64,000 nucleotides of DNA from Actinomycetota bacterium (GCA_036679125.1 JAZIGI010000004.1:5904-69903); one strand, 5' to 3'. Shown: positions 21,646-36,635, counted from the stretch's first letter. The notes: generated by a model from the sequence alone, not told the origin. Numbers and translations: made by a program.

Positions 21646-21987
21646 TCACGACTCGAGCGTGGTGTCCACCAGCGCCGCATCGGCAGCGTTCTTCTTCACC
21701 GAGGCGATGCCGTTTTCCATTGTGGCCGCCGAGGCGTACATCTGGCTGCGCCCGACCTCCTGGCCGTTGCTGGCCTTCAGCACGAAGTACGGACGGCCGT
21801 CTTTGGCGGTGCGGCGCTCGAAGCGCTCGTCGAGCACGCCGTTCTTCCGCACGGACTCTATGCCGGCCAGGGCGCTCTTCTTCGCCTTGTAGGTCTCGCT
21901 CGTGAGGATGGTCTGGCTGTTGCCGGCCTTGAGGTTGAAGGTGAACTCACCGTTCTTGGCCAGGGCGAGCACGAATTTGCCGGGCAT
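21646..21987 (-). CDS. YegP/DUF1508 family protein (two tandem repeats)
   Basis: MPGKFVLALAKNGEFTFNLKAGNSQTILTSETYKAKKSALAGIESVRKN and ...GRPYFVLKASNGQEVGRSQMYASAATMENGIASVKKN. The RBS is AAAGGAG. Confidence 0.85.
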   Translation of the reverse strand: MPGKFVLALAKNGEFTFNLKAGNSQTILTSETYKAKKSALAGIESVRKNGVLDERFERRTAKDGRPYFVLKASNGQEVGRSQMYASAATMENGIASVKKNAADAALVDTTLES

Positions 21988-22275: not shown

Positions 22276-22842
22276 TCATGCGCTTTCCTCGTACACGGCC
22301 ATCTCGATTCCGAGGAGTTGAAGCCCCCGACACAGCAGTTCTCTGTCGGCTAGGTTGATGATCGCGCCCCCCGAAAAGAGCACTAACAGCTTCCTTGGCG
22401 CTCGTGAGCCATCTGTGAGTCCGGGTGCAGCGGCCATGAACTCGAGCATTCGACGGACAGCTGTTTCCCACTTCGCATACGCCCCGCGCGAGGCCACAAG
22501 AAGCTCGCCAGAGTCGAGCCGATGAAGCGAAACAGGCTTGCGATACTCGATCTCGACTGCGCCCAAGCCGTATGTTGAATCGATGACGGTGTCGATATCT
22601 CTCTCAAGTGGCCGCCGGTCCTTGGAGTACCTGTTGAGAACCCCATCCTTGATGTAGGTGCGCACCTTTTCCGAGGGCATGTACTGGCGAAGAACGCCGC
22701 CGACGTCCTCACACGCAAGCAGCGAATCCATGAAGATGCCGTTGTCGATGCGGCCCATGCGCAGGTAATGCGTTTCGTCGGCCTGGCGGTAGATTTCGGC
22801 CTTCACGCGCTTCTGTACGTCTCGCGGCAACTGAACGCTCAT
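22276..22842 (-). CDS. Hypothetical 188-aa protein, last gene of the island operon
   Basis: Start ATG 22842 overlaps the stop of the helicase gene (ATGA). The composition is normal. I recognise no motif. Confidence 0.7.
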   Translation of the reverse strand: MSVQLPRDVQKRVKAEIYRQADETHYLRMGRIDNGIFMDSLLACEDVGGVLRQYMPSEKVRTYIKDGVLNRYSKDRRPLERDIDTVIDSTYGLGAVEIEYRKPVSLHRLDSGELLVASRGAYAKWETAVRRMLEFMAAAPGLTDGSRAPRKLLVLFSGGAIINLADRELLCRGLQLLGIEMAVYEESA

Positions 22843-24497
22843 GCAATCTCCGGAAACTCGAGGACGTGGGCATCATCTTGCTCGCTAAGGTCAGCCACAT
22901 CCCGCAGCCATTGGTCGATGAAGGGGCCAACCTGCGGATCGCTGAACTCGACCATTCCGGTCCCAAGGTACACATTCTCAGGTCTGGGTTGTCGTCGCAA
23001 TTCGCCGTCGAGATCGGACACCACAGCTATCCTGCGAATGTCGGACACGAAGTCCAGGACGACGACCGAGGTCTTCTCTGGAGTGACCCTAAGGCCTCTT
23101 CCGAGTTGCTGTACGAAGATGCGTCTAGAGTGCGTTGCGCGAAGGAAGACGAGGATGTTCACGTCTGGGACATCGATACCTTCGTTCAGGACGTCCGCCG
23201 CAGCAACAGCCGCCACTGAGCCTGCCGAGAACTCCATCAGGGCCCGATTCTGTTCGATGCGACTGACTCCTGATAGGCACTTGCAGCGAATGCCGGCGAT
23301 CGTCGTCAGCATCTGGGCGAAGCGCTTGGCGTGCTCTACTGACGGGCTGAAGATGGCGATTCTCGGGTTCTCCATTTCGGTTGCCACCTGTTTGATTTCC
23401 TCGATGCATGCTTCGTCACGCTGCGGCATGAATAGCTTCTTGTTCAGGTCCCTGATTGTCAGTCTGTTCCTGCTTAGCTTTGGGACAGCGTCCCAATCGA
23501 CGTTGTCGCAGAAGATGCGGTAGTCGACTGTCGCCAGGTATCCAGCGCTCATCCCGTCCACGAGCGAGACCCGCTCGACAGGCTCTCCGAAGATCCCGTC
23601 GATCGACGATCCATCGCCTAGCCACGGAGTGGCCGTCATCCCCACAAGGAACTTCGGTCTCAGGTGGCTCAGGCAAGTTCTGAATCCGTGAGCTAGGGCA
23701 TGGTGGGCCTCATCGACAATGACAACATCGAACTCGTCTTCATCTATGCCGCCCAGGTAGCCCAGGAAGCTCTGGTACAGACCGAAGTTCACCCCATCGT
23801 ATGCGTGCGGTGGAGCTCCCCCGTAGAACGTGCGTGTGGGGACGTCCTTGGGTAGCTGAGTCCAGAAGCTCTGTTCAAGCTGAAGGGCCAGCGGTTGTCG
23901 ATCGCAGAGAACCAGCGCCCGCTTCAGCCCTCGCTGTCGCAGCTCTACCAGGAGTTGTGCAGCGACCACACTCTTCCCCAGTCCCGTCGCGAGTACGAAC
24001 TGCGCGCGCTTCTCGCCGGCATCGTATGCATCCAGGCAAGTCCTCACAACGCGGTCCTGATAGTCCCGAAGCTGGCGCTTCTCGTGATGCTCTGACGGCC
24101 ACATGTCCAGCAAGTCGCGCAGGAACTTCCCATTCCAAAGCTTCAGATCAAAGCCAGCGTTGCGAAGTTCGTCGCGACGAAGATGTGCCGACTTGGTGAA
24201 GTCGCCGTTCGTCACGACCACGCCCACTTGGGCTCCGTATGCGGCCTGGGCCGCAACCGCTTCATCAATTGGCGACTTGCCAACATAACGGTCGCCGGTA
24301 ACGGCTTTTGATTGCACCACATATGGGATTCTACGGGGACCATTGGCGCGAACCGCGATAATGTCACCGCCCATGTCGCCAGCCCGACCGATAACCCGTA
24401 CCGAGCTCCAACCACAATGTGACATGACGCGAGCCACTGCTCTCTCAAGTCCGCGCCAATCCGCCCCCGACATCAACTCGTCAGTGAGGAAACTCAT
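22839..24497 (-). CDS. Fusion protein: N-terminal Mrr-like PD-(D/E)xK nuclease plus SF2 DEAH-box helicase (type III restriction res-like)
   Basis: The Mrr_cat-like part is WRGLERAVARVMSHCGW..GDMGGDIIA...YVVQSK. Helicase motifs: ATGLGKS (Walker A), VDEAHH (DEAH), MTATP (III), QQLGRGLR (VI). Confidence 0.85.
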   Translation of the reverse strand: MSFLTDELMSGADWRGLERAVARVMSHCGWSSVRVIGRAGDMGGDIIAVRANGPRRIPYVVQSKAVTGDRYVGKSPIDEAVAAQAAYGAQVGVVVTNGDFTKSAHLRRDELRNAGFDLKLWNGKFLRDLLDMWPSEHHEKRQLRDYQDRVVRTCLDAYDAGEKRAQFVLATGLGKSVVAAQLLVELRQRGLKRALVLCDRQPLALQLEQSFWTQLPKDVPTRTFYGGAPPHAYDGVNFGLYQSFLGYLGGIDEDEFDVVIVDEAHHALAHGFRTCLSHLRPKFLVGMTATPWLGDGSSIDGIFGEPVERVSLVDGMSAGYLATVDYRIFCDNVDWDAVPKLSRNRLTIRDLNKKLFMPQRDEACIEEIKQVATEMENPRIAIFSPSVEHAKRFAQMLTTIAGIRCKCLSGVSRIEQNRALMEFSAGSVAAVAAADVLNEGIDVPDVNILVFLRATHSRRIFVQQLGRGLRVTPEKTSVVVLDFVSDIRRIAVVSDLDGELRRQPRPENVYLGTGMVEFSDPQVGPFIDQWLRDVADLSEQDDAHVLEFPEIA

Positions 24498-26863
24498 TCG
24501 GTCAGCTCGGATTCGAGGAACGAGATGCTGTGACTGCAGCGCGACAGCTCCTCCTTCTGTCGATAGGCGCCAGCGGATGCAGCGGCCTCTCCGAGCACCC
24601 AGGTAGCGTCCTTCATGAGTCCGATGATCCTATCGAGCGACTCTGATCGTGCTCTCTTCGTGGCGGCAGGATCGCCAAGTGAGATTGATGTGTACGGAGT
24701 GCTCAGGCACGCTCCATCGAGCACCCTTCCGGGGAAGGCGTCCACAAGCCGAACCAGCGCACGAGGCGATACTGAGTAGATGGCCTCAATGCACCCGGGT
24801 GATGCGTCCTGAAACTTCTTGAGGAGTGACGGCTGCTCCAAGAGGGCCATCGCCGTAACCTCCTCGTCGCCCGCATGTTGCTTGATCGATGCGATCACTT
24901 CGGCCTCGACAGGTGCAAGCTCCAAGACCATCCTCTCGCGCAGTCCGTTGAAGAAGTGCGACGCTCGCTCCTGGAGACCGATTCTGTCTATTCGGCCGTC
25001 GGAGAAGTTTCGCTCGTAGACATCGAGGAAGGCCGCGCCCAGGTCTGTAAGGTTGTCGCGAATCTTGAACCTCTCGGCCAGGTACAGCGCTAGTAGCTCT
25101 CTTGGTCCTGCGGGGTAGGCGGCAATTCCCGGGTGTCGGGGATCGAACACGAAGTCGCAGTTGTAACCTTGCGAGAAGAAGGCGCAAGCTCGCCTCTCGC
25201 CGTCCACAAGTATGCTTCCTGACTCCAGTTCCCAGGTCTTCACTTCGAACGGAGAAGCATTGCCGCCCACGAAGTAGCGGCGCGACATAGAGCTGTTGGC
25301 CCTCGCCAGAGTCTTCAACTCATCAAGACTACTTGTCTTCTTCGGTGTAGCCTCAGGCGTGCTTGGCGTGGGGGTAGGGGGTTCGTCGTCATGCGTGGAT
25401 GGTGCATACTCGTCTGGGTCGTCGCTAGCGATACCGCCGGAATCGACAGGTCCCTCATCTCCGGACTTCTTGTTAGCCTTTCGGCGGTCAGACTCCTTCG
25501 CGGCCTCGAACCACTTCTGATCCGGAACGTATTCTGGATCGCCCTCCCGGAAGCGCTCGGCCCACTGGCGTGCCAACGCTGGTTCGACCGCCAAGTTCTT
25601 CGTCCCTGAGTCTGCACGACGGTAGGCGTTTACGAGTCTACCGATATACGAGGAGTTCTCATCCGTGAAGCCCATTCCGCGACGGGCCTGGGGAAGAATA
25701 GGACCCACTCCCCGAAGTGCATCGATGGTCTCCCGCCAGGAATCGTCCTGCCGATCGAAGTCGTTCTTCTGATATGTCGGAATCAGATAGTCCACATGGA
25801 GTTCGCCGATGATTCGCCCGCCGACGGTGGAGCCGAGCTCTTTTGGATACTCTTGCGACCGAGTGCCTGTGATTGGGTTCTCATAGAAGAAGAGGGTCTT
25901 GTCTGACAGAAGAATCTTCCTACCATTGCGCACGAAGTCGATGCCGAAGTCGTCCGGATCAGCGTACCTCTGGATGCCAATCCAGCCATGCAGGACCTTG
26001 CGGCGCATGATGATGCTGTCGGGTAGTTGCTCGCCGCGTGATAGAAGTTCAAGCAGTGAATCCGCCTCGAGCGGAGCGACGTAGGCGTTCCGCACTACGT
26101 CAAAGAAGGCCTCACCGAGCGTCTCCTCCACCTGGATGACTGCTGGCACCTGCACTCCGTTGCGGACCACAAAGCGGTCGTCACCCCAGACACATGCTGG
26201 TCGAGTTACGAGTCGCTTACCTTGAACTTCAACTGCCACGTCTGAGGTGGCGAGAAGGGGCGAGTAGACTCGCTCGAGTTGTCGTCGAATCTGCTGCTCC
26301 TGATCTCGTAGCGTCCTATATGCACCAGGCTTAAGGTCACTGACCACCACTCTGGTGCCGTGCTCGCTTGTCACGGTCTTCGGTTCATGGATCACGGGTG
26401 CCATGAAGTCGCCCGACTTCTGCAGCTCGTCGAAGTCGATCTCGATGCCGACCCACTCCGATGACTCTTGCGTGGCCGATAAGACGCGCGTGCGGTTGCC
26501 AAGACGGGCGGTCGCTATGTTGAACCCCATCCCAAAGAGACCGAGGTTATCGAGCGGGTTTCGTCCTGTGTAGCCCGCCCTTGCGACGTTACTGATTTGC
26601 TCCAGCGTCATGCCAGGGCCATTGTCACTGACCTCAAGCGTGCGATCTCGCGCCGGCACTGCGGCAGCAGACCAAGAGACTGCGACGCGCGCGCCCTGCG
26701 GCGCGGTGTCTGGGCCCGATGCTTCGGCGGTAGCGAATGCATCGATAGCATTGTCGACGAGTTCCGCAATGCACTGCCATGTAGCGTACGGAATGTCACC
26801 GAGCACTCTCAGTACCCGCGGAGTCGGATGGATGCCGACCTTCTGTACTTCGTCTGCGCTCAA
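24494..26863 (-). CDS. GHKL-superfamily ATPase, MORC-like (prokaryotic MORC/paraMORC), 789 aa
   Basis: Bergerat-fold motifs: ELVDNAIDA (N-box), DNGPGM (G1), GLFGMGF (G2). Downstream are FGIDFVRNGRKIL and GRIIGELHVDYLIPTYQKNDF. These resemble the MORC S5-domain signature (..PTHNKQDF..), which I cite from memory. Confidence 0.85.
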   Translation of the reverse strand: MSADEVQKVGIHPTPRVLRVLGDIPYATWQCIAELVDNAIDAFATAEASGPDTAPQGARVAVSWSAAAVPARDRTLEVSDNGPGMTLEQISNVARAGYTGRNPLDNLGLFGMGFNIATARLGNRTRVLSATQESSEWVGIEIDFDELQKSGDFMAPVIHEPKTVTSEHGTRVVVSDLKPGAYRTLRDQEQQIRRQLERVYSPLLATSDVAVEVQGKRLVTRPACVWGDDRFVVRNGVQVPAVIQVEETLGEAFFDVVRNAYVAPLEADSLLELLSRGEQLPDSIIMRRKVLHGWIGIQRYADPDDFGIDFVRNGRKILLSDKTLFFYENPITGTRSQEYPKELGSTVGGRIIGELHVDYLIPTYQKNDFDRQDDSWRETIDALRGVGPILPQARRGMGFTDENSSYIGRLVNAYRRADSGTKNLAVEPALARQWAERFREGDPEYVPDQKWFEAAKESDRRKANKKSGDEGPVDSGGIASDDPDEYAPSTHDDEPPTPTPSTPEATPKKTSSLDELKTLARANSSMSRRYFVGGNASPFEVKTWELESGSILVDGERRACAFFSQGYNCDFVFDPRHPGIAAYPAGPRELLALYLAERFKIRDNLTDLGAAFLDVYERNFSDGRIDRIGLQERASHFFNGLRERMVLELAPVEAEVIASIKQHAGDEEVTAMALLEQPSLLKKFQDASPGCIEAIYSVSPRALVRLVDAFPGRVLDGACLSTPYTSISLGDPAATKRARSESLDRIIGLMKDATWVLGEAAASAGAYRQKEELSRCSHSISFLESELTE

Positions 26864-26883
26864 CTGGCCCCCCTACTATCCCG

Positions 26884-27867
26884 CTATCGTCTGGTGTTCT
26901 CCAAGTAGGTCGCGACTGACTGCGCAACATGGTGAGCTAGCACCGGCGGTACCGCATTGCCTATCTGCATTATGTTCGTTGTTGCGGAATGGGGAAACAC
27001 GAAGCTGTCCGGGAAGGTCTGAAGCCTCGCACACTCCCTAACCGTAAGACGCCTTGGCAGCGAGTAGTGGAACTGAACGCGAGACTTGGCATTCGCCCTG
27101 ACGGTGTATGCTGGCTTGTCCGCCTGGCTGGTCTCATCCCCTTGACCGTTGCCACGTTTCGCCTTGCTGGCCAGGAAGAACTGGCTTTGGTTAGGCACGG
27201 ACTCATCAGTTACGGGCTCCAAGTCCTCGATAGCCCACCGAATCGATCTGTGCGCCCCCGCATGCGTCGCCCGTGGCGCCAAGGGCGCGCCATCCAGGTC
27301 ACTCCGGACGCCGACCAGGAAGATTCTTGTTCGATTCTGTGGGACACCGTAGTCCGGAGCGAACAAACGCCATGTCTGAAATCGATAGTCCTCAGCCTCG
27401 AAATCGAAGATTATCTGCCTGAGCGCATCCCCATCATGAATGCGCTCCAGGTGAGGAACATTCTCAGCGACCACGACCTTCGGTCGGTGCCTCCTCATGT
27501 ACGCTACAAGCGCCAAGTAGAGTTGTCCGCGCTCGGAGGTCAGCCCACGCTTGGGGCCACATGAAGAGAAGTCCTGGCAGGGAAAGCCGCCGATCAGAAC
27601 GTCCGTGCCCTGCATGCCATCGACGTATGGATTGCTGAGGTCTCTGATCTCGATTGACTGGTCGAGGTTCTCGCGGTACGTGGCGACGGCCTTCGCGTCG
27701 TAGTCGAACGACTGGGCGATCTCAAATGGAAGTCCTGGCAGTGATTCACCCCGGAACTCGAAGCCCCCTCTGAACCCAAGGTCCATGCCGCCGCATCCGG
27801 CGAAGAATGAGGTGATGGTGAACCGGCTGCTCGACTCGGCGATTGAGACACGATGAAGAGGGATCAC
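26884..27867 (-). CDS. dcm: DNA (cytosine-5)-methyltransferase
   Basis: Motifs: I FFAGCGG, IV GGFPCQDFS, VI ENV, VIII QNRTR, X GNAVPP. The start is uncertain. GTG 27867 lies 20 nt after the vsr stop with a GAAGGG RBS. ATG 27975 would overlap vsr by 88 nt. Confidence 0.9.
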   Translation of the reverse strand: MIPLHRVSIAESSSRFTITSFFAGCGGMDLGFRGGFEFRGESLPGLPFEIAQSFDYDAKAVATYRENLDQSIEIRDLSNPYVDGMQGTDVLIGGFPCQDFSSCGPKRGLTSERGQLYLALVAYMRRHRPKVVVAENVPHLERIHDGDALRQIIFDFEAEDYRFQTWRLFAPDYGVPQNRTRIFLVGVRSDLDGAPLAPRATHAGAHRSIRWAIEDLEPVTDESVPNQSQFFLASKAKRGNGQGDETSQADKPAYTVRANAKSRVQFHYSLPRRLTVRECARLQTFPDSFVFPHSATTNIMQIGNAVPPVLAHHVAQSVATYLENTRR

Positions 27868-27887
27868 AGCGCCCTTCGGCGATTCTT

Positions 27888-28361
27888 TCAACGTCTCCCC
27901 AAGAACGAAATCAACCGCATCTTCAGAGCATCTAAGTCCTTGGTCTCGCACTCCCAAACCGTCAGCACATCCCATCCCATTTCACGGAGCATGCACTCAT
28001 TGCGCATGTCTCGCTCATGATTTGCGTTGAGCTTCGGCTCCCAGAAATCCAGCCGGCTCTTCGGCATGCGAGACAAGGCGCAACCAGGATGCCGATGCCA
28101 AAAACAACCATGCACGAAGATTACCTTGCGTCTTGGGCCAAAGACCAGGTCAGGCTTGCCCGGAAGTCCGGCTACGTGCAGTCGGTACCGATATCCAAGC
28201 GAATGGACGGCACGCCTCACGACCATTTCTGGCCGACTACCCTTCTGGGGCACTCTCGCCATGATCGAGCTTCGGACTTCACTCGATACCGTGTCCACGC
28301 GTTCACTCGTCTTCAGACCATGCGCATAATCTGGCACCGACAGGGCCCGCATGGACACCAT
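27888..28361 (-). CDS. vsr: Very-short-patch repair endonuclease
   Basis: RSSIMARVPQKGSRPEMVVRRAVHSLGYRYRLH..LPGKPDLVF...IFVHGCFWHRH..C...PKS...FW..K...N..RD...GW.VLTVWECE. The RBS GAGGAG lies 8 nt upstream. Confidence 0.9.
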   Translation of the reverse strand: MVSMRALSVPDYAHGLKTSERVDTVSSEVRSSIMARVPQKGSRPEMVVRRAVHSLGYRYRLHVAGLPGKPDLVFGPRRKVIFVHGCFWHRHPGCALSRMPKSRLDFWEPKLNANHERDMRNECMLREMGWDVLTVWECETKDLDALKMRLISFLGRR

Positions 28362-28653
28362 ATCGCAGACTCCTCGTTAGAGGAATGCTCGAAGTCAGCC
28401 CTGACAAGGCAGACGGTCCAGACCGACCAAGCATGCCCGAACTGTGAGTCCGTCGGCTGGAGGGCCGGATTCCAAACGACGGCCTGCGGGTCATGAGCTT
28501 TCGGTTCATGACTCCGCAATGCGGGAGCACCGAGATGACTTGTCCGCTCTGGAGCTTGCCCCTGCCGATGTCGCGTTGATCGCGGAGCTTCAGCGCCAGG
28601 GTATCTGGTAGCCTTCTTGAAGCTGGTTCACCACGCTCCTGAAAGGCCCCCGC

Positions 28654-29488: not shown

Positions 29489-31072
29489 CTACTGCACCTG
29501 GATGAGCTCGTCGGTAGGCGCGTGCGAGTCGGTGAGCAGCGGCACGTCGGCCACCTCGACGGGGCTGGAGTACAGGTCCTGCGCCATCTCCGCGAAACCG
29601 CTGATGGTCACCCGGCCATCCACTCGTGAGGCGATCGCGCCGAGCATGCGCGCGTCGTCGGCAGGTGCGTCGGTGGCGAGCACGATGATGTTGCGCATCG
29701 CGAGGGTGTTCCCGTCGGCGCCCAGACCGATGGGGAACACGCGGATCTGGCTCCACACACCCTCGGCGGTGCGGTACATGCTGCGGAAGAGCTTGCTGGC
29801 ATCTCCTTCAGGCGCAGAGATCACGTTGTACGCGATCACGCCGTCGGGCGACATCACCGCCTTCACCTCGCGCAGGAACTCCTCGGTGGTGAGGTGGAAC
29901 GGCAGCGCGTCGGAGTAGTAGGCGTCCACGATCACGATGTCGTACGTCTCGCCCGTGGTCTGCACGTAACGGCGTGCGTCCTCCACGAACACGCGGCTCC
30001 GCTCGTCTTCGGGCAGCCAGAAATACTTGCGCGCCACGTCTACCACCACCGGGTCGATCTCCACCGAGTCGACCGACACGCCCGGGTAGTCGCGCCAGAA
30101 GCGCTTGGTGATCGCGCCGCCGCCGAGGCCGAGCACCAGCACACGCTCGGCGTCGGGCTTGAGCGTGAGCGCCAGATGCATGTAGTCGGGGTAGCGGATG
30201 CGGCTCTCGTAGGGGTCGTCGAGCGAGATCGCGCTCTGGTGCGAGCGGTCGAACCGCAGGTGACGCGCACCGTCGCCCTCGGTCACCGTGATGCGGTGGT
30301 ACTGGGTGTCCTGCCGGAAGAGGACGGTCTCCCCCTGTTCGTTCACCGCAGGCGCCGGGGCCACGCGCCACAGCACGAATCCGCCGAGTGCGGTGGCGGC
30401 CACGCACAGCGCGATGGTGGCCGGCGCCACGGCGCGCGCCAGACGCGCATGGTGCTCGGCTGTTCCCTCGGCAGGCTGCTCCGGCCTCAGCGTGAGCGCC
30501 AGGAGCGCGATGCCGATGAGCACGAGCCCGGTCCAGACCACGAGCGGTTCGAGCGAGAGCATCGGGATCAGCCAGAACGACGTGGCGAGCGTGCCCACGA
30601 TGCTGCCGGCGGTGGAGACGGCGTACAGGTTGCCGGTGGAGCGACCCAGGCGCGCCATGCCGCCGCTTGCGGCGAGGCGCACGCCCAGCGGCGAGACCAT
30701 GGCGAGCAGGAGCGCCGGCACGAAGTAGATGGCGGTTGCTGCGGCGAGCGAACCGAGGCGCGGACCGAGGTCCGCCGCGGACGGCAGCACCCACTGCGAG
30801 AGCAGCGGCCCGGCGGCGGTGACCAGGCCTGCGGCGGCGATCACGGGCGGAAGCGAGCGGGCGGCGCCGAAGCGGTCGGCCAGCTGACCGCCGAGCGCGT
30901 AGCCGATGGAGAGCGCGATCATCACCACGGAGATCACGGCGCCCCACACATAGATGGAGTTGCCGAGGTACGGCGCGAGCACGCGCGCCGCTACCATCTC
31001 GAGTCCCATCAGCGCGGCCCCGCACCAGAAAATGATGAATCGCAGCATGTTTGCAGCTCCCGTCTCGCGCAT
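29489..31072 (-). CDS. Fused polytopic membrane / spermidine synthase-like protein
   Basis: The N-terminal ~200 aa are hydrophobic. The C-terminal part is RVLVLGLGGGAITKRF...DIVIVDAYYSD...PDGVIAYNV. The start is ATG 31072 or 31048. Confidence 0.8.
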   Translation of the reverse strand: MRETGAANMLRFIIFWCGAALMGLEMVAARVLAPYLGNSIYVWGAVISVVMIALSIGYALGGQLADRFGAARSLPPVIAAAGLVTAAGPLLSQWVLPSAADLGPRLGSLAAATAIYFVPALLLAMVSPLGVRLAASGGMARLGRSTGNLYAVSTAGSIVGTLATSFWLIPMLSLEPLVVWTGLVLIGIALLALTLRPEQPAEGTAEHHARLARAVAPATIALCVAATALGGFVLWRVAPAPAVNEQGETVLFRQDTQYHRITVTEGDGARHLRFDRSHQSAISLDDPYESRIRYPDYMHLALTLKPDAERVLVLGLGGGAITKRFWRDYPGVSVDSVEIDPVVVDVARKYFWLPEDERSRVFVEDARRYVQTTGETYDIVIVDAYYSDALPFHLTTEEFLREVKAVMSPDGVIAYNVISAPEGDASKLFRSMYRTAEGVWSQIRVFPIGLGADGNTLAMRNIIVLATDAPADDARMLGAIASRVDGRVTISGFAEMAQDLYSSPVEVADVPLLTDSHAPTDELIQVQ

Positions 31073-31346
31073 CACTGCGTCTCCATGCAACCTTCGGCGC
31101 AACTGGACAGGCTCCTGCCGTATCCGAGTTCTATCGAGCTACCTCCTGGTGAGTCATCGAAACTGCTCATCATGAACAGGGGACTATGCGATTACCCATG
31201 GACAACCAATGGATGCTGTGCTAGATAGGGCCTGCGGCCCAATGGCCGTTTGCGGCGCGCACCGTGTCATTTCGCGTTTACGTCGAGACAGGGTGTCGGG
31301 TTCGGGCTTCGCCTCACGGAGCCGTCGGTACTGGGGGAATACGAAT

Positions 31347-32258
31347 ATGTCTTCTTTGTTGAGCGTCGCGGCGCTCGATGTCCGGCGTATCGTCACGTCC
31401 CGAGGGACGGCCGTCCTGTTGGTGATTGCGCTCACGATCATGGGATACCAGACCGTGACCGCCGCACACACGATCGGCTACGCCGTGAGCCCCAGCCTGA
31501 TGGATACTTCGGGATTCCAAGCGTTTGTCGAGCCGACGCCCCCCCATTTCTCAGGCGGCGAGGTGCTCGCCCATGAAGCCTCCCCAAGCGTGCGATTTGC
31601 CACGTCCTTGTGGTACCTGGACTACCTTGCGCTGGCGGCGCTTGTCGTGTTTGGAGGGTTCTTCGCCCGCGACACCCAAGCTGGGTACGACCTGGTGCGC
31701 CGCTCCCGGGGCCTATCTGCGGGGTCTCTGTTTGCCGCAAACGTACTGAGCGTGATCGCAGTCTCTTTCTCCTTCTCGGTGATCGGCGTTCTCGCGCTCT
31801 ATCTCGTATGCCTCGCGGTGAATCCGCAGAGCATGAACTCGCTTGCACAGGGGCAGATGATGCTCGAGCAGGTTCTGTTCCTCCCGCAGTTCGCCGCCAG
31901 CCGGCCGCTGCTCTATGCCGGTTTCTTCGTGCTCATCTACACGGGCATACTCAGCTTCCTTGGCGTACTCGGCCTGCTCATCGCACGTCTTACACGCAGT
32001 GTGGTTATCGCCGCAGTGGCACCCGCCGGCTTCTTGTATGTACTTGGCGGATTCGTAGCGGCACGACTCCCAGGGGTCTTCGTTGTGTTCGCGTACGACA
32101 ACCTCTCGATTGCCACACGGAGCATCACCAGCATGTCAGTCATGCGGCAGTATGTCGCACCGTACTTCATGTGGATCGTGGTGCTGGTGGCGTTGGGTCT
32201 GTCGCTGCCGCTGATCAGTCCAGGAGTCAGGAGGTTGTGGCTGTGGCCGAGTCGATAG
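31347..32258 (+). CDS. ABC-2-type transporter permease-like membrane protein
   Basis: Trimmed to ATG 31347 (GGGGGA RBS). 303 aa with about six hydrophobic segments. It overlaps the ATPase gene. G+C is lower than in the backbone. Confidence 0.65.
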   Translation: MSSLLSVAALDVRRIVTSRGTAVLLVIALTIMGYQTVTAAHTIGYAVSPSLMDTSGFQAFVEPTPPHFSGGEVLAHEASPSVRFATSLWYLDYLALAALVVFGGFFARDTQAGYDLVRRSRGLSAGSLFAANVLSVIAVSFSFSVIGVLALYLVCLAVNPQSMNSLAQGQMMLEQVLFLPQFAASRPLLYAGFFVLIYTGILSFLGVLGLLIARLTRSVVIAAVAPAGFLYVLGGFVAARLPGVFVVFAYDNLSIATRSITSMSVMRQYVAPYFMWIVVLVALGLSLPLISPGVRRLWLWPSR

Positions 32259-32950
32259 TGGAGGCCCGTGGGCTCAGGAAGTCCTTCCGGGGGCGGCAGG
32301 TCTTGAAGGGCGTCGACATCGAGATCCATGAGCGTGAGGTCGTGGGGTTGGTGGGGCTTAATGGCAGCGGCAAGAGCACGCTGCTGAAGATTCTTGCCTG
32401 CGCGGTTGCCCCCGATGCCGGACATGGGCGCGCATGCGGCGTTGCCCTTGGCGGCAGCCGCAGTCCTGTTTGCGGATACATGATGGAGCACCCGCCCTTC
32501 ATAGAGAACTTCTCCGGACTACAGAACCTCCTCGCGTTGGCGGACATGAGTGGCACAGTCACACGCTCGGAAGTCGAGGCCACGCTCCGCCGTGTCTGTC
32601 TTGACCCCGGTGACCGCACGCACGTGCGGCGCTTCTCTCAAGGGATGCGGCAGAGACTCGGTCTTGCTCAGGCACTCATGGAGAAGCCGCCCCTGCTGCT
32701 GCTCGACGAGCCCCTGAACGGGCTCGACCCGTCCGGGATTCTCGATGTTCGACGAATCATCTCCGAGTCGGCGGCACAGGGCGCGACCGTGCTGTTCTCA
32801 AGCCACGTACTCTCAGAGGTGCAGAGGCTATGTGACCGCGTACTCGTCCTGAATGATGGGGTGATCATCGAGCTCGGCGGAGACTGTCTCTCCACGTGTG
32901 ACGCGTTGGAGTCAGCATATCGAGATACGACGGGCTACGCGCGTGCGTAG
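32243..32950 (+). CDS. ABC transporter ATP-binding protein
   Basis: This is the C-terminal part of ORF 31610..32950. GTG 32243 lies 8 nt after GGAGG. Motifs: GLNGSGKST (Walker A), FSQGMRQRLGLA (signature), LLLLDEP (Walker B). Confidence 0.9.
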   Translation: MAESIVEARGLRKSFRGRQVLKGVDIEIHEREVVGLVGLNGSGKSTLLKILACAVAPDAGHGRACGVALGGSRSPVCGYMMEHPPFIENFSGLQNLLALADMSGTVTRSEVEATLRRVCLDPGDRTHVRRFSQGMRQRLGLAQALMEKPPLLLLDEPLNGLDPSGILDVRRIISESAAQGATVLFSSHVLSEVQRLCDRVLVLNDGVIIELGGDCLSTCDALESAYRDTTGYARA

Positions 32951-34370
32951 GGAAGAGTGGGCACTGCTCGTCTCCGAAGTCAGGCGCCGAGTCGTCTCAT
33001 ACAAGTACGGCGTGGTCTTGTTCGTCATGACCTCCTTCATCTGGTCGACGGTCAACCAGATGAAGGCATTCGAGGCCAGCACCGGTGTCGGGTACAACGC
33101 CTGGGACGTCTTCATCGGTCTGTTCGGAAACACGTATAGCGCGCTCACCTCCACTGTCGTGTTCACATTGCTGTTCATCTTCCTTCTCGGTTCGAGCGTG
33201 CAGGAGGACGTTGCATCCGGGTACTCCGTGCTCGTACAGTCGCGACTTTCGCGCAAGAACTCCTACTGGTGGATCAAGATGCTCGTTGTGCCGATAGTCG
33301 TTGGTACGACTGTCGCCGCGCTTCTGGCCATTTCGCTCGTCATGGGAGCAACTCGAGGCCTGCCCGTTCTCCCGGCGACGCTCTCGGAGGCCGGTGTCCA
33401 TCCGGACGCGTGGGGTATCGCGCCAGCGGGGACCCCACCGATCTACTACTCGTTGCCCTCCGGCACATCGGTGGTCCTGCATGGACTCTTGATCGCGCTG
33501 TACTTCTCGTTCGCATACACGTCGGTGACTGTCTTCACGATCGGCACTGCTGCGAGATCCCGAAGCTCCTACACGCCTCTCGCCTCCGGGGTCCTCTTCA
33601 TGGGACTCAACCTCGCGGCGGCCACTGCAGCCCCAGACAGCATATACAGCGTCACCCTGATCAGCGCACTGACAGAAAGCAGCCATCGGCCGATCCCGCT
33701 GATGGACAGTCCGGTGTACTACTCCGTCCCGTGGTCCCACAGCCTTCTCCTGCTCTTGGCGCTGCTCATCATCGGGCTGCTCATCGGCTATGCGATCACG
33801 CCAACCCGAAGGGCTTCTTTGAGAGGCGCACGGTTGCCACGGGCGGTGGCACTCGTGCTTATCGCGGTCCTCGCGATGCCGGCTGCGGGATGCGTCGAGT
33901 TGCCTGAGGGCGTGACGTACGAGCAGTTCATCGGGGCCGCATACCCCCAGGTCCCTGATGTGCGGCTTGAGGGTCTGACCCAAGCTGACATCGACTACGT
34001 GAGGACTGTGGCCCGGCAAACGGTTCGCCTGAGGGACGCCGTCGCGGACCTCAACGCTGTCTGGGGTTCTCAGAACCTGCATGCCAGCGAAGTTGAGGTG
34101 AACCGCATGCTGTCTGATCGCCTTGATACCCTCGATGAGCTTATCCGAGAGACGCGGGCAATCGAAGTGCCACCGACACTCGAAGACTGGTTCGCGCTGC
34201 AGTATGGGCCGGGGCTTGACGAGTTGCAGTACGTCGTCGACAACCTCCAGTCACTTCATGAGCGGCACGACCATGTAGGAATCAAGATGTGTCTCAAGCA
34301 CGTCTGGTATGCGGACACGTACTTCTCTGCTGCAGCGGAGAGCGTCACTGGGTTCATGCCGAGTGAATAG
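32943..34370 (+). CDS. Large polytopic membrane protein with a C-terminal extracytoplasmic domain (ABC-2/immunity-like)
   Basis: GTG 32943 overlaps the ATPase stop. There are about 7 hydrophobic segments over ~300 aa, then a soluble ~150-aa tail. The start is uncertain. Confidence 0.65.
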   Translation: MRREEWALLVSEVRRRVVSYKYGVVLFVMTSFIWSTVNQMKAFEASTGVGYNAWDVFIGLFGNTYSALTSTVVFTLLFIFLLGSSVQEDVASGYSVLVQSRLSRKNSYWWIKMLVVPIVVGTTVAALLAISLVMGATRGLPVLPATLSEAGVHPDAWGIAPAGTPPIYYSLPSGTSVVLHGLLIALYFSFAYTSVTVFTIGTAARSRSSYTPLASGVLFMGLNLAAATAAPDSIYSVTLISALTESSHRPIPLMDSPVYYSVPWSHSLLLLLALLIIGLLIGYAITPTRRASLRGARLPRAVALVLIAVLAMPAAGCVELPEGVTYEQFIGAAYPQVPDVRLEGLTQADIDYVRTVARQTVRLRDAVADLNAVWGSQNLHASEVEVNRMLSDRLDTLDELIRETRAIEVPPTLEDWFALQYGPGLDELQYVVDNLQSLHERHDHVGIKMCLKHVWYADTYFSAAAESVTGFMPSE

Positions 34371-34446
34371 GAGGTGAGGACTGGGGGACTTGCCATGAAA
34401 GGATGACCGGAACGAGTGAGGGGAAATCACGAAACGGCATAGGCTC

Positions 34447-34821
34447 GTGATCGCACTGGCGATCGTCATGGTATTGGGAAGCAGCCAGGCTGCCTTCGCA
34501 ACATCGCAGTACTATCACTTCCACAACAACGTGCCCCGCACGGGCTGGCTGAGCTCTTCATACAAGACCTTGCCGGCCAACACCAACTTCACCACCACTC
34601 TCAACAGCTGTGTTGCCACGAACGGTAGTTCAGAGGGCTCTAAGGGCGTCCTGATGAAGCCGGTTCGCTCCAACGGCACGCAGTACTCGTACAAGACGGT
34701 GCTTCCTGGCGAAGCTCGGAAGCTCCTGCTCGGCTCCGTCGGGTACTCACGGTCGATCCGCATCGATCTTCAGGCCGTGGGAACCTCGGCGGTTGACTGC
34801 ACGGGGTACTGGTACTTCTAG
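34447..34821 (+). CDS. Small secreted protein with two Cys and an aromatic C-terminus (possible lactococcin-972-like bacteriocin)
   Basis: GTG start. The signal-like part is IALAIVMVLGSSQAAFA / TSQYYHF... The mature ~105 aa are rich in S/T/N/G/Y and end in CTGYWYF. The RBS is weak. Confidence 0.6.
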   Translation: MIALAIVMVLGSSQAAFATSQYYHFHNNVPRTGWLSSSYKTLPANTNFTTTLNSCVATNGSSEGSKGVLMKPVRSNGTQYSYKTVLPGEARKLLLGSVGYSRSIRIDLQAVGTSAVDCTGYWYF

Positions 34822-35077
34822 AAGGTTCGGTTCTCTGCTTCCGGCGCCCGGAGTGCTCACCTCGGTGGTGCACATCCCGGCGCCCCGACATACCAGGATT
34901 AATCTGCGGCAACCACCCATCGGGGCAGAGCGAACAACCCCGTCAACGCCCCCCCACGACGGTCCTGTGAGGGTTCGAGCGGCGCAGGTCCGAAAAGATG
35001 CGCGCGTCGTTGTCCTGCGCGATACTCGTACCTGCGACAGAGCATCGGCCAATCGCTCCACGGCGCGAGGGGGCACC

Positions 35078-36598
35078 ATGTCTGAACCACTTCCCGGACT
35101 GCTCATCGGCAAGGCGGGCGGCGATGTCTCGCTGCTGCCCGCGATGGCCAACCGCCACGGACTCGTGGCCGGCGCCACCGGTACCGGCAAGACGGTGACC
35201 CTGCAGGTGCTCGCCGAGGCGTTCAGCTCGATCGGCGTGCCGGTGTTCGCCGCCGACATGAAGGGCGACCTCTCAGGAATCTCGCAGGCCGGCGCGATGA
35301 ACCCCAAGATCGAGGAGCGCGTTGCCAAGATGGGCCTCGGCGAGTGGAGCTTCTACGGCTCACCGGTGACGTTCTGGGACGTCTTTGGCGAGAACGGGCA
35401 CCCCATCCGCACCACTGTGTCCGAGGTAGGCCCGCTGCTCCTCGGTCGCATGCTCAACCTGAACGACACGCAGGAGGCTGTGCTCACGATCGCCTTCCGT
35501 GTTGCCGACGAGAACGGCCTCTTGCTGCTCGACATCAAGGACCTCCGCGCGATGCTCAAGTACGTGTCCGACAACGCGCGCGAGATCGGGAGCACGTACG
35601 GCAACGTCTCGCCCGCGAGCGTGGGCGCCATCCAGCGCTCGCTGCTCGCGCTCGAGGAGCAGGGCGGCGACCTCTTCTTTGGCGAGCCGGCGCTCGATCT
35701 GTTCGACTTCATCCAGATCGACGGCAACGGCAAGGGCATGGTGAACATCCTCGCCGCCGACAAGCTCATGAGCTCCCCGCGCCTGTACTCCACGATGCTG
35801 CTTTGGCTGCTCTCCGAGCTCTTCGAGCGGCTGCCTGAGGCGGGCGACCTGCCCAAGCCCAAGCTCGTGTTCTTCTTCGATGAGGCGCACATGCTCTTTG
35901 ACGACGCGCCGGACGCGCTGCTCACTAAGATCGAGCAGGTCGTGCGGCTCATCCGCTCCAAGGGCGTGGGCGTGTACTTCGTCACGCAGAACCCCATCGA
36001 CATCCCTGACACCGTGCTCGCCCAGTGCGGCAACAAGGTGCAGCACGCGCTGCGCGCCTACACGCCACGCGAGGCCAAGGCCGTGAAGGCGATGGCCGAG
36101 ACGTTCCGGCCCAACCCCGCGCTCGGCGATGTGGAGGCCACGGTCACCGAGCTCAAGGTGGGCGAGGCGCTCGTGTCGTTCCTGCAGGCCGACGGCTCGC
36201 CGATGCCCGTGGAGCGCGCGATGATCGTGCCGCCGCACGGCCGCATCGGCGCGATCGCACCGGCCGAGCGTCAGGCGATCATCGCCGGCTCGCTCATCGC
36301 CGGCCACTACGAGGCTGTCGTGGATCGCGAGAGCGCCTACGAGCTGCTCAAGGCGCGTGCCGAGGCGGAGATCGCGGCCGAGCAGCAGGCGGCCGCGGCA
36401 GCCGAGGCCGCGAAGCTCGAGGTGACCGTGCCCAGACCCAAGCCTGCGGCGAAGAAGCCGCGTGCGGCGTCCTCGTCACGCAAGGACACGCCGCTCGAGG
36501 CGTTCACCAAGAGCGCCACTCGCGCTATCGGCAGCCAGGTGGGCCGGCAGATAGCGCGCGGCATCCTGGGTACCATCCTCGGAGGGTCCAAGCGATAG
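35078..36598 (+). CDS. HerA-like ATPase, DUF853 (YjgR) family
   Basis: Trimmed to ATG 35078 (MSEPLPGLLIGKAGG). Motifs: GATGTGKT (Walker A), VFFFDEAH (Walker B). The C-terminal tail is basic. Confidence 0.85.
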   Translation: MSEPLPGLLIGKAGGDVSLLPAMANRHGLVAGATGTGKTVTLQVLAEAFSSIGVPVFAADMKGDLSGISQAGAMNPKIEERVAKMGLGEWSFYGSPVTFWDVFGENGHPIRTTVSEVGPLLLGRMLNLNDTQEAVLTIAFRVADENGLLLLDIKDLRAMLKYVSDNAREIGSTYGNVSPASVGAIQRSLLALEEQGGDLFFGEPALDLFDFIQIDGNGKGMVNILAADKLMSSPRLYSTMLLWLLSELFERLPEAGDLPKPKLVFFFDEAHMLFDDAPDALLTKIEQVVRLIRSKGVGVYFVTQNPIDIPDTVLAQCGNKVQHALRAYTPREAKAVKAMAETFRPNPALGDVEATVTELKVGEALVSFLQADGSPMPVERAMIVPPHGRIGAIAPAERQAIIAGSLIAGHYEAVVDRESAYELLKARAEAEIAAEQQAAAAAEAAKLEVTVPRPKPAAKKPRAASSSRKDTPLEAFTKSATRAIGSQVGRQIARGILGTILGGSKR

Positions 36599-36635
36599 GC
36601 GCTGCGGGGGCGGCGCCTCGAAGGAGCGTGGCACG

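Follow-up and report, generated by a model that had tools for sequence, protein, structure and literature searches.

What kind of system is formed when genes for a MORC-type ATPase, a helicase-nuclease, a small orphan protein, a cytosine methylase (Dcm) and a Vsr endonuclease stand together on one strand? We addressed this question for a cassette of five minus-strand open reading frames (ORFs) at positions 22276-28361 of a 64,000-nucleotide (nt) stretch of DNA from an Actinomycetota bacterium (GCA_036679125.1 JAZIGI010000004.1:5904-69903). This stretch, hereafter the window, is identical in sequence to the 266-kb metagenome contig ENA ERZ16299685 NODE_48. In order of transcription, the cassette encodes Vsr, Dcm, the MORC ATPase, the helicase-nuclease and a 188-amino-acid (aa) orphan; the ORFs lie where a first-pass annotation, made from the sequence alone, had placed them, and its domain calls are backed by Pfam. 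We interpret the cassette, with a probability of roughly 60%, as an ATP-dependent restriction-modification system in which a MORC clamp would license the helicase-nuclease on unmethylated DNA. Judged by gene content, motifs and neighborhood, it is a member of the "type 1" MORC restriction-modification class that was predicted in silico in 2008 (Iyer, Abhiman and Aravind, Biol Direct 3:8; PMC2292703).

The MORC ATPase and its partner proteins

The 789-aa ATPase matches the Pfam domain HATPase_c_3 (8.6e-10). When a profile of 65 homologues was compared with 177,635 distinct PDB sequences, MORC3 and MORC4 were the sole matches, with a second matching segment over the S5-domain lysine. The best Foldseek matches of an AlphaFold2 model (mean predicted local distance difference test score [pLDDT], 85) were MORC3, MORC2 (including a DNA-bound structure) and MORC4, with SMCHD1 and Hsp90 among the early matches. 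Residues of the four GHKL ATP-binding motifs (E34, D37, N38, D80xGxG84, G108LFGxGFN and T170) and K366 are invariant in 79 homologues. The main text of the 2008 study gives the S5 motif GhXhhpXXRhl as the separator of MORC from paraMORC families (PMC2292703). At G307-L318 of the window protein, G307-IDFVRNGRKI fits this motif at 10 of 11 positions; K316 replaces the expected hydrophobic residue, and G307, R312, N313, G314 and R315 are again invariant in all 79 homologues. Because it combines the S5 motif and invariant ATP-binding residues with profile matches and best fold matches to MORC proteins, the 789-aa ATPase is a true prokaryotic MORC. Its closest named homologue (84% identity) is from "Actinobacteria bacterium 66_15".

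Beyond the conserved module, a disordered linker (aa 466 to 512; pLDDT <50 from 467 to 504) leads to a C-terminal domain of about 275 aa, modeled at a pLDDT of about 90 as a beta-sheet followed by a helical bundle. This domain is among the fastest-diverging parts of the system and is a candidate DNA-reading or partner-binding domain.

The 552-aa helicase-nuclease joins an N-terminal nuclease (Pfam Mrr_cat, 9.2e-17) to a superfamily 2 (SF2) motor (ResIII, 3.4e-26; Helicase_C, 3.7e-14), the domain order of the Type I subunit HsdR. Across 74 homologues, no change is seen at D41, D45, Q62 or K64 of the nuclease or in helicase motifs I to III (GxGK, DExH, TAT), and motif VI (QxxGRGxR) is kept in at least 71 of them. 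The nearest solved relatives of the motor are SauUSI (7CLG, 1.6e-26), RadD, the Type I HsdR 3H1T and XPB/Rad25. The Pfam scan of this protein revealed no recognizable target-recognition domain.

Two sequence variants touch these proteins. At window 23970-23972, residue S176 of the helicase-nuclease gives the Walker A motif GKS, in place of the GKT found in all 74 homologues; the variant is unique to the window lineage and probably functionally neutral, GKS being a functional form of Walker A. In contig L087 from the sister sample ERZ16299682, the MORC gene (L087:1125-3494, corresponding to window 24494-26863) carries the nonsense codon E212*, which sits among 5 substitutions in 24 nt; elsewhere, the 8.8-kb contig agrees with the window at 99.86% identity. 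With coverage at only about 4x, either the ATPase has been inactivated in nature or the contig is misassembled at this point; the MORC gene is also split in locus L115. The nonsense codon and the GKS substitution could be taken as signs that the window copy is an inactive remnant. We regard this as very improbable, as the five ORFs are full length with every catalytic motif intact, GKS is functional, and the nonsense variant belongs to a five-mismatch cluster in a contig of 4x coverage.

The 188-aa protein, for which the first-pass annotation recognized no motif, is indeed without a match in Pfam, PADLOC or NCBIfam. Its family comprises 291 clusters at 50% identity, essentially all of them standalone proteins of about 185 to 195 aa, and the gene stands directly downstream of the helicase-nuclease gene wherever examined. 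In the AlphaFold2 model (mean pLDDT, 85.8), a helical N-terminal half carries the invariant motif RTYIKDxxLNxYxK, and an alpha/beta C-terminal half carries KWETA. The model weakly resembles PD-(D/E)xK proteins (NucS/EndoMS, FokI) and KilA-N. A role as a nuclease was considered and rejected, because no acidic residues are conserved in the beta2 and beta3 strands.

Both modification genes are intact. Vsr matches Pfam Vsr PF03852 (6.8e-24) and NCBIfam TIGR00632 (133.5 bits against a cutoff of 97.85), and FVHGCFWHRH is readable in its translation. Dcm matches DNA_methylase PF00145 (1.2e-61) and TIGR00675 (187.5 bits against 100.65). As the first-pass annotation stated, its 5-methylcytosine (m5C) methylase motifs I, IV, VI, VIII and X are complete and readable in translation (FAGCGG, PCQDFS, ENV, QNRTR and GNAVPP). 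Its nearest solved relative is M.HaeIII (4.8e-35). The longest dcm ORF (26884-27975, ATG 27975; 363 aa) overlaps vsr by 88 nt, and gene callers chose lengths of 300, 327 or 335 aa in sister samples; GTG 27867 is the probable start, the resulting 327 aa matching the lengths of homologues.

Stop and start codons overlap as ATGA between the MORC and helicase-nuclease genes (24494-24497) and between the helicase-nuclease and small-protein genes (22839-22842), as had been annotated. The other gaps had been put at about 20 nt. This holds between the dcm stop codon TAG (26886-26884) and the MORC start codon TTG (26863), and holds between vsr and dcm only if dcm starts at GTG 27867.

Recurrence, modules and mobility

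We surveyed one genome per GTDB species and fetched 79 loci. A relative of the ATPase is carried by at least 356 representative species genomes, and more than 2,600 protein clusters match it. The fetched loci fall into a clade A, whose ATPases are 39 to 55% identical to the window protein, and a clade B, at about 33%. Clade A hosts include Desulfobacterota, Nitrospirota, Bacillota, Bacteroidota, Verrucomicrobiota, Chlamydiota, Planctomycetota, Chloroflexota, and Alpha- and Betaproteobacteria; clade B is found mostly in Actinomycetota, especially Streptomyces.

Among loci with enough flank, the genes for MORC, the helicase-nuclease and the small protein are adjacent and codirectional in 28 of 30 in clade A, while all 42 in clade B have an adjacent helicase-nuclease and 37 a detectable small protein; the helicase-nuclease gene thereby adjoins the MORC gene in 70 of 72 loci. 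When divergent homologues of the small protein served as the starting point, the same cassette came up in three of three cases, so that the co-occurrence of the three nonmethylase genes is near-exceptionless from either the ATPase or the small-protein side. At 58 of 74 loci, the MORC stop codon shares 4 nt with the start of the helicase-nuclease gene, and at 5 others the two share a single nt. This conserved overlap argues for translational coupling and for a stoichiometric complex. Chance does not account for the arrangement, since about 100 independent loci, drawn from many phyla, hold the same set of genes.

The modification genes are nearly always present, in less regular positions. Of 50 fully flanked loci, 49 encode Dcm and 43 encode Vsr, upstream or downstream of the trio and on either strand. 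Among fully flanked clade A loci, dcm is the gene directly upstream of MORC, on the same strand, in 12 of 15, as it is in the window; clade B includes loci with convergent or divergent dcm genes several kilobases away. This variability is as expected for a separate modification module. The Dcm proteins group into lineages of 35, 35 and 10 loci. Comparison of the two largest shows strong divergence of every restriction-module component as well (identity is, for example, 13% in the C-terminal half of the small protein, 21% in the MORC C-terminal domain and 43% in the helicase core), a pattern to be expected were each Dcm lineage to carry along a module version of its own. Between clades, the C-terminal half of the small protein (13%) and the MORC C-terminal domain (21%) stand against 43% in the helicase core and 40% in the MORC N-terminal domain, with 25% in the Dcm target-recognition region. 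Since the trio is fixed while Dcm, with or without Vsr, varies in place and lineage, comparison of these loci indicates that the cassette is built of two modules: one for restriction, with its three genes fixed, and one for modification, in which a cognate Dcm, accompanied or not by Vsr, is open to exchange.

This linkage bears on two alternative functions. In the first, the helicase-nuclease would be a Type IV-like, modification-dependent nuclease directed against foreign modified DNA, with Dcm and Vsr as unrelated neighbors. The Mrr_cat domain would suit such an enzyme, and the best PADLOC and PDB matches of the protein are mREase_IV and SauUSI; both alignments, however, are confined to the motor (residues 152 to 489), the protein has neither the phospholipase D-type (PLD) nuclease nor the methyl-reading target-recognition domain of SauUSI, and a system that cuts 5-methylcytosine would be incompatible with an always-linked Dcm. 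We therefore rejected a SauUSI/Mrr-like Type IV assignment and consider this function highly improbable.

In the second, the cassette would be a repair kit for Dcm damage, without restriction: MORC would stimulate Vsr as MutL does, and the helicase-nuclease would take the part of UvrD and an exonuclease. E. coli MutL does stimulate Vsr and load UvrD (cited in the main text of Iyer et al., PMC2292703), and Vsr accompanies most of the loci. Yet Vsr is missing from 5 of 15 fully flanked clade A loci while the trio is nearly always complete, and an Mrr-type double-strand nuclease on a Type I/III-like motor is typical of restriction enzymes. Very-short-patch repair in E. coli, moreover, needs only DNA polymerase I and ligase after the Vsr nick. 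We judge a repair function to be distinctly improbable.

The cassette family is mobile. A homologous cassette lies on an integrative and conjugative element of Geopsychrobacter electrodiphilus, adjoining TraF, TraG and TraH genes, and another lies beside transposases on the conjugative Rhodococcus plasmid pLW4, where its RefSeq names are purely generic. In IMG/VR, 20 contigs (putative prophage contigs) carry a homologue, 14 of them with the full restriction module; no ATPase homologue was found in cultured phage genomes.

Additional genes accompany some of these loci. Clade B actinomycete loci (e.g., L046:12615-13931 and L057:12619-13971) carry an extra conserved gene after the small-protein gene. 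Its product of about 440 to 450 aa, with an N-terminal Sigma70_r4-like helix-turn-helix (HTH), is encoded in 28 fetched loci and absent from the clade of the window, and may be a regulator or a fourth subunit of the restriction module. In one cassette recovered from two samples (L111:1182-1433 and L112:1182-1433), a gene about 540 nt upstream of dcm specifies an HTH_3/HTH_19 protein of 83 aa; this protein resembles the controller (C) proteins, small transcriptional regulators of many Type II systems, and has no equivalent in the window.

Known systems and the proposed mechanism

The first-pass annotation stated that MORC operons had been predicted computationally, which is correct: the 2008 study predicted them to be restriction-modification systems, and the "type 1" operon in its main text, with a Rad25-like SF2 helicase fused to a restriction endonuclease-fold nuclease and with a cytosine methylase and Vsr nearby, fits the cassette closely (PMC2292703). 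The two share a GHKL ATPase with the MORC-specific S5 motif, an adjacent helicase-nuclease, the cytosine methylase and Vsr, and a sporadic, mobile distribution. The main text of that paper also draws a MutL-MutH/Vsr-UvrD analogy, and it was proposed in 2008 that the silencing factors MORC and SMCHD1 of eukaryotes descend from prokaryotic MORCs. The novelty of the cassette had thus been overrated, its architecture having already been described in silico. The main text of PMC2292703 describes no obligate 188-aa subunit, MORC C-terminal domain or exchange of Dcm lineages for the "type 1" operon. What we add is the orphan protein as an obligate third subunit, the MORC C-terminal domain peculiar to this family, the conservation of translational coupling, the exchange of Dcm lineages as modules and counts of co-occurrence.

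No model in PADLOC, NCBIfam or Pfam names the system. PADLOC gives generic helicase, methylase and Vsr matches, NCBIfam system models score far below their cutoffs, and the cassette, as had been supposed, is assigned by no tool to a characterized system. The family is absent from PADLOC v2, and its RefSeq annotation is generic. A possible identity with the Hma system, raised in the first-pass annotation, did not hold up: HmaA (Snf2/DUF3883), HmaB (DUF1156) and HmaC (a DUF499 AAA+ ATPase) all differ from the Pfam domains of the cassette, and no Hma model appears among the PADLOC matches listed for the five proteins, lists that are complete for the helicase-nuclease and ATPase and give the best 25 of 62 for the methylase. 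MANTIS, a BREX-related system with an AAA+ ATPase, DUF3870, an N6-adenine methylase and a PLD-SF2 effector, was likewise rejected, as all families differ. In logic, Hma and MANTIS resemble the cassette, since each joins an ATPase and a small or auxiliary protein to a methyltransferase and a helicase-nuclease; the cassette draws on other families, with a GHKL ATPase of the MORC type, a Dcm for m5C and a fusion of Mrr to an SF2 motor.

The fusion of a nuclease to an SF2 translocase is shared with Type I HsdR, Type III Res and SauUSI. The best family match of the helicase-nuclease is EcoAI-type HsdR (3.1e-34, 118.5 bits against a cutoff of 550). Unlike Type I and III systems, the cassette has no HsdM/HsdS or Mod partners; instead, it has a GHKL ATPase partner and a standalone m5C methylase. 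Type I was rejected on the subthreshold HsdR score and the absence from the cassette of an N6-adenine methylase and a specificity subunit. In Type III systems, the Res nuclease is C-terminal to the motor and the Mod methylase carries the target-recognition domain; we rejected this type since the nuclease of the cassette is N-terminal, PADLOC REase_III matches only at E values of at least 4e-4, and the methylase is a standalone m5C enzyme.

Other systems share the ATPase fold. Like the MutL-MutH/Vsr-UvrD set, the cassette combines a GHKL and S5 ATPase, a PD-(D/E)xK nuclease, a helicase and methylation as a mark, and it includes Vsr itself; it differs in that its ATPase is MORC and not MutL (NCBIfam MutL, 0.005), in that it has no MutS-like sensor, in the fusion of nuclease to helicase and, probably, in an outcome of foreign-DNA destruction rather than repair. 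The ATPase module has its closest sequence and fold matches in eukaryotic MORC2, MORC3, MORC4 and SMCHD1. The window protein, unlike the eukaryotic MORCs, lacks CW and coiled-coil domains, has a family-specific C-terminal domain and is partnered by restriction-modification proteins, not chromatin factors. A GHKL module is also present in the BbrUII/HgiDII Type II enzymes and in VcSduA (paraMORC3/Shedu). BbrUII/HgiDII was rejected because NF050001 reaches 20.4 bits against 550, over residues 60 to 218 only, and those enzymes, like VcSduA, are single polypeptides with nuclease or specificity parts of their own; Shedu type I-D/paraMORC3, in which one chain joins a GHKL domain to a DUF4263 PD-(D/E)xK nuclease, was rejected because there is no DUF4263 match and the MORC C-terminal domain has no Pfam match. 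Caulobacter ScmA/VsrA, tried as a characterized relative, proved unrelated. The defense system Mza (MzaABCDE; PADLOC/NCBIfam) also has a GHKL ATPase, MzaB, which it combines with a helicase, and protects against phage; Mza is not known to have a methylase. It was rejected, as MzaB NF041932 scores 17.5 bits against 850 (E = 0.001), no Mza model matches the other four proteins and PADLOC reports no Mza match.

In the reading that we favor, Dcm would methylate C5 of cytosine in a short, specific sequence and so mark host DNA as self, and Vsr would nick beside the T of T:G mismatches left by deamination of 5-methylcytosine, which would limit the mutational cost. The products of the three translationally coupled restriction genes probably form one complex. 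By analogy with MutL and eukaryotic MORCs, MORC would dimerize on ATP binding and clamp DNA; its C-terminal domain, the 188-aa subunit or both would read the unmethylated Dcm site; and the clamp would recruit or license the helicase-nuclease, which, in the manner of HsdR and SauUSI, would move along the DNA by means of its SF2 motor; the Mrr-type domain at its N terminus would make the cut. Methylation of the target sequence would block cleavage, and an anti-phage or anti-plasmid phenotype is predicted. Such a mechanism would extend the MutL-MutH/Vsr-UvrD analogy and parallel the two-ATPase logic of MANTIS, for which restriction of unmethylated sites, with a small co-regulator, has been demonstrated.

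The small protein and the MORC C-terminal domain are favored as candidate DNA readers because they are the least conserved parts of the system and the helicase-nuclease has no target-recognition domain. The C-protein-like HTH gene, the mobile contexts and the lower G+C content of the cassette in the window lend the restriction model further support.

The position of dcm could be read differently. Dcm might be the sole sequence reader, loaded or activated by MORC and the small protein in a Type III- or MANTIS-like complex that passes unmethylated sites to the helicase-nuclease, the restriction module then having no specificity of its own. Such a mode is known from MANTIS, whose AAA+ ATPase and small co-regulator act with a methyltransferase and a helicase-nuclease; the searches of the restriction module turned up no reader domain; and the same-strand placement of dcm directly upstream of MORC in the window and most clade A loci would fit. 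Dcm is, however, an ordinary 327-aa Type II-like methylase without extra domains, and the freedom with which dcm changes position and strand suits an independent module better than an obligate subunit; we consider this arrangement unlikely.

Nor need the fast-evolving parts be readers: they could be targets of a phage arms race, in an infection-triggered or abortive defense in which MORC senses a phage cue or aberrant DNA and releases a nonspecific nuclease, with Dcm providing partial self-protection or serving another role. VcSduA, experimentally shown to be a single-chain GHKL-nuclease defense protein, and the GHKL ATPase of anti-phage Mza are precedents for such a response. The near-obligate Dcm linkage and the three lineages, each with its own module clade, are on the other side the signature of a modification-based self mark, and a triggered defense appears improbable.

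Several results weigh against restriction of unmethylated DNA by a MORC-licensed nuclease. A partial Mantel test of co-evolution, with helicase divergence controlled for, singled out no component that tracks the methylase: over the full set of loci, MORC and the small protein followed Dcm (r of about 0.3 to 0.5, with whole Dcm or its target-recognition region) and the Mrr domain did not (r of about 0), but within clades all components covary with Dcm, and the test is confounded by shared phylogeny. The closest solved relative of the motor, SauUSI, is a modification-dependent enzyme. Neither proposed reader has a recognized relative: a scan of 18 members of the small-protein family at E values up to 1 gave no Pfam, PADLOC or NCBIfam match, its fold search in PDB and BFVD gave nothing at E <1e-3, and the MORC C-terminal domain had no match in the PDB-sequence profile search or in a Pfam scan of 16 members. 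Dcm bears only a moderate relation to M.HaeIII (GGCC), with a target-recognition domain that aligns poorly. We found no experimental study of a bacterial system of MORC, helicase-nuclease and Dcm in the literature, in keeping with the earlier statement that no experimentally characterized system was known to have exactly these five genes. Finally, and mildly, one fully flanked locus (L057, Streptosporangium nondiastaticum) has no recognizable methylase within 8 kb, an absence that a lethal nuclease for unmethylated DNA should not tolerate unless it is inactive or the methylase is encoded elsewhere. The restriction module of this 18-kb locus is intact, flanked upstream by an ORF with a weak likeness to Vsr and downstream by a fragment of an integrase, and the locus looks like an orphan restriction module or one whose methylase is located elsewhere.

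We advance tentatively, as a possibility held with some doubt, a wider proposal: that the trio is a distinct class of ATP-dependent restriction in which a MORC clamp and an orphan reader check cytosine methylation and license a translocating nuclease. This would be a two-ATPase checkpoint without an equivalent in Types I to IV and a prokaryotic ancestor of the eukaryotic link between MORC and methylation silencing, and the 188-aa protein and the MORC C-terminal domain would represent new DNA- or methyl-state-reading folds.

The system is not categorically new, and the interpretation is supported as far as computation can test it; the proposed self/nonself restriction model agrees with all that was observed. 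The class is widespread and missing from the defense catalogues examined, and it bears on the origin of eukaryotic MORCs, although its existence will not surprise specialists. Our literature search yielded no biochemical or genetic study of a prokaryotic MORC-family restriction-modification system, although the paraMORC3 protein VcSduA has been tested. The three coupled restriction genes and their cognate Dcm, with or without Vsr, define a compact testable unit. If the proposed mechanism is true, it would add a new architecture to ATP-dependent restriction and provide a bacterial model for the coupling of MORC clamps to DNA methylation.

Coordinates, base composition and neighboring genes

Positions of the cassette features are collected in Table 1. 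Measured in 500-nt windows, the G+C content is 0.57 to 0.60 inside the cassette, against 0.69 to 0.72 on one side (18.5 to 21.5 kb) and 0.66 to 0.72 on the other (28.5 to 31 kb). The dip noted in the first-pass annotation is therefore real in direction and smaller than the 47 to 53% against 70 to 75% given there. The cassette is a laterally acquired defense locus in an uncultured high-G+C bacterium. A search for its insertion boundaries found no empty-site contig, all sister contigs being identical to the window up to their ends, and no convincing flanking repeats, tRNA genes or integrase genes. A sigma-70 consensus scan of the presumed promoter region found nothing convincing, and promoter and terminator consensus scans gave no signal over background.

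Table 1. Features of the cassette, in window coordinates.
Feature	Position	Strand	Basis
vsr, 157 aa	27888..28361	-	Pfam, NCBIfam, motif in translation
dcm, probable GTG start at 27867, 327 aa	26884..27867	-	Pfam, NCBIfam, m5C motifs
MORC ATPase gene, 789 aa, TTG start	24494..26863	-	ORF and HATPase_c_3
Shine-Dalgarno-like AGGGGGG, 4 nt upstream of MORC TTG	26868..26874	-	read from sequence
MORC N-terminal GHKL and S5 module with helical region, aa 1-465	25469..26863	-	Pfam, profile, Foldseek
MORC acidic and proline-rich linker, low confidence, aa 466-512	25328..25468	-	AlphaFold2 pLDDT
MORC C-terminal domain, aa 513-789, and stop codon	24494..25327	-	AlphaFold2 pLDDT
Helicase-nuclease gene, 552 aa, ATG start	22839..24497	-	ORF and Pfam
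Mrr-type PD-(D/E)xK nuclease domain of helicase-nuclease, aa 12-130	24108..24464	-	Mrr_cat
SF2 (Rad25/HsdR-like) DEAH motor of helicase-nuclease, aa 142-488	23034..24074	-	ResIII, Helicase_C
Small orphan subunit gene, 188 aa, ATG start	22276..22842	-	ORF, family alignment
Intergenic region from vsr to divergent S-adenosylmethionine (SAM)-methyltransferase gene; presumed operon promoter region	28362..28653	.	position only

Two neighboring loci were also seen. Directly downstream of the cassette, in the zone of G+C transition, lies a DUF1508 gene (window 21646-21987, minus strand; 113 aa, two repeats, 6.7e-41), which is not part of the conserved cassette elsewhere. On the other side, at a distance of 3 kb, the G+C content falls again, to 58 to 62%, over window 31000-36600. 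The operon-like run of genes there, on the plus strand, encodes a 303-aa protein of unknown function, a 235-aa ABC/AAA_21 ATPase (PADLOC mad3, 2.8e-31, a partial match; AriA, 8.5e-14), unknown proteins of 475 and 130 aa and then a HerA_C NTPase (full-length PF05872, 9e-222), and it may be a second defense-like module.

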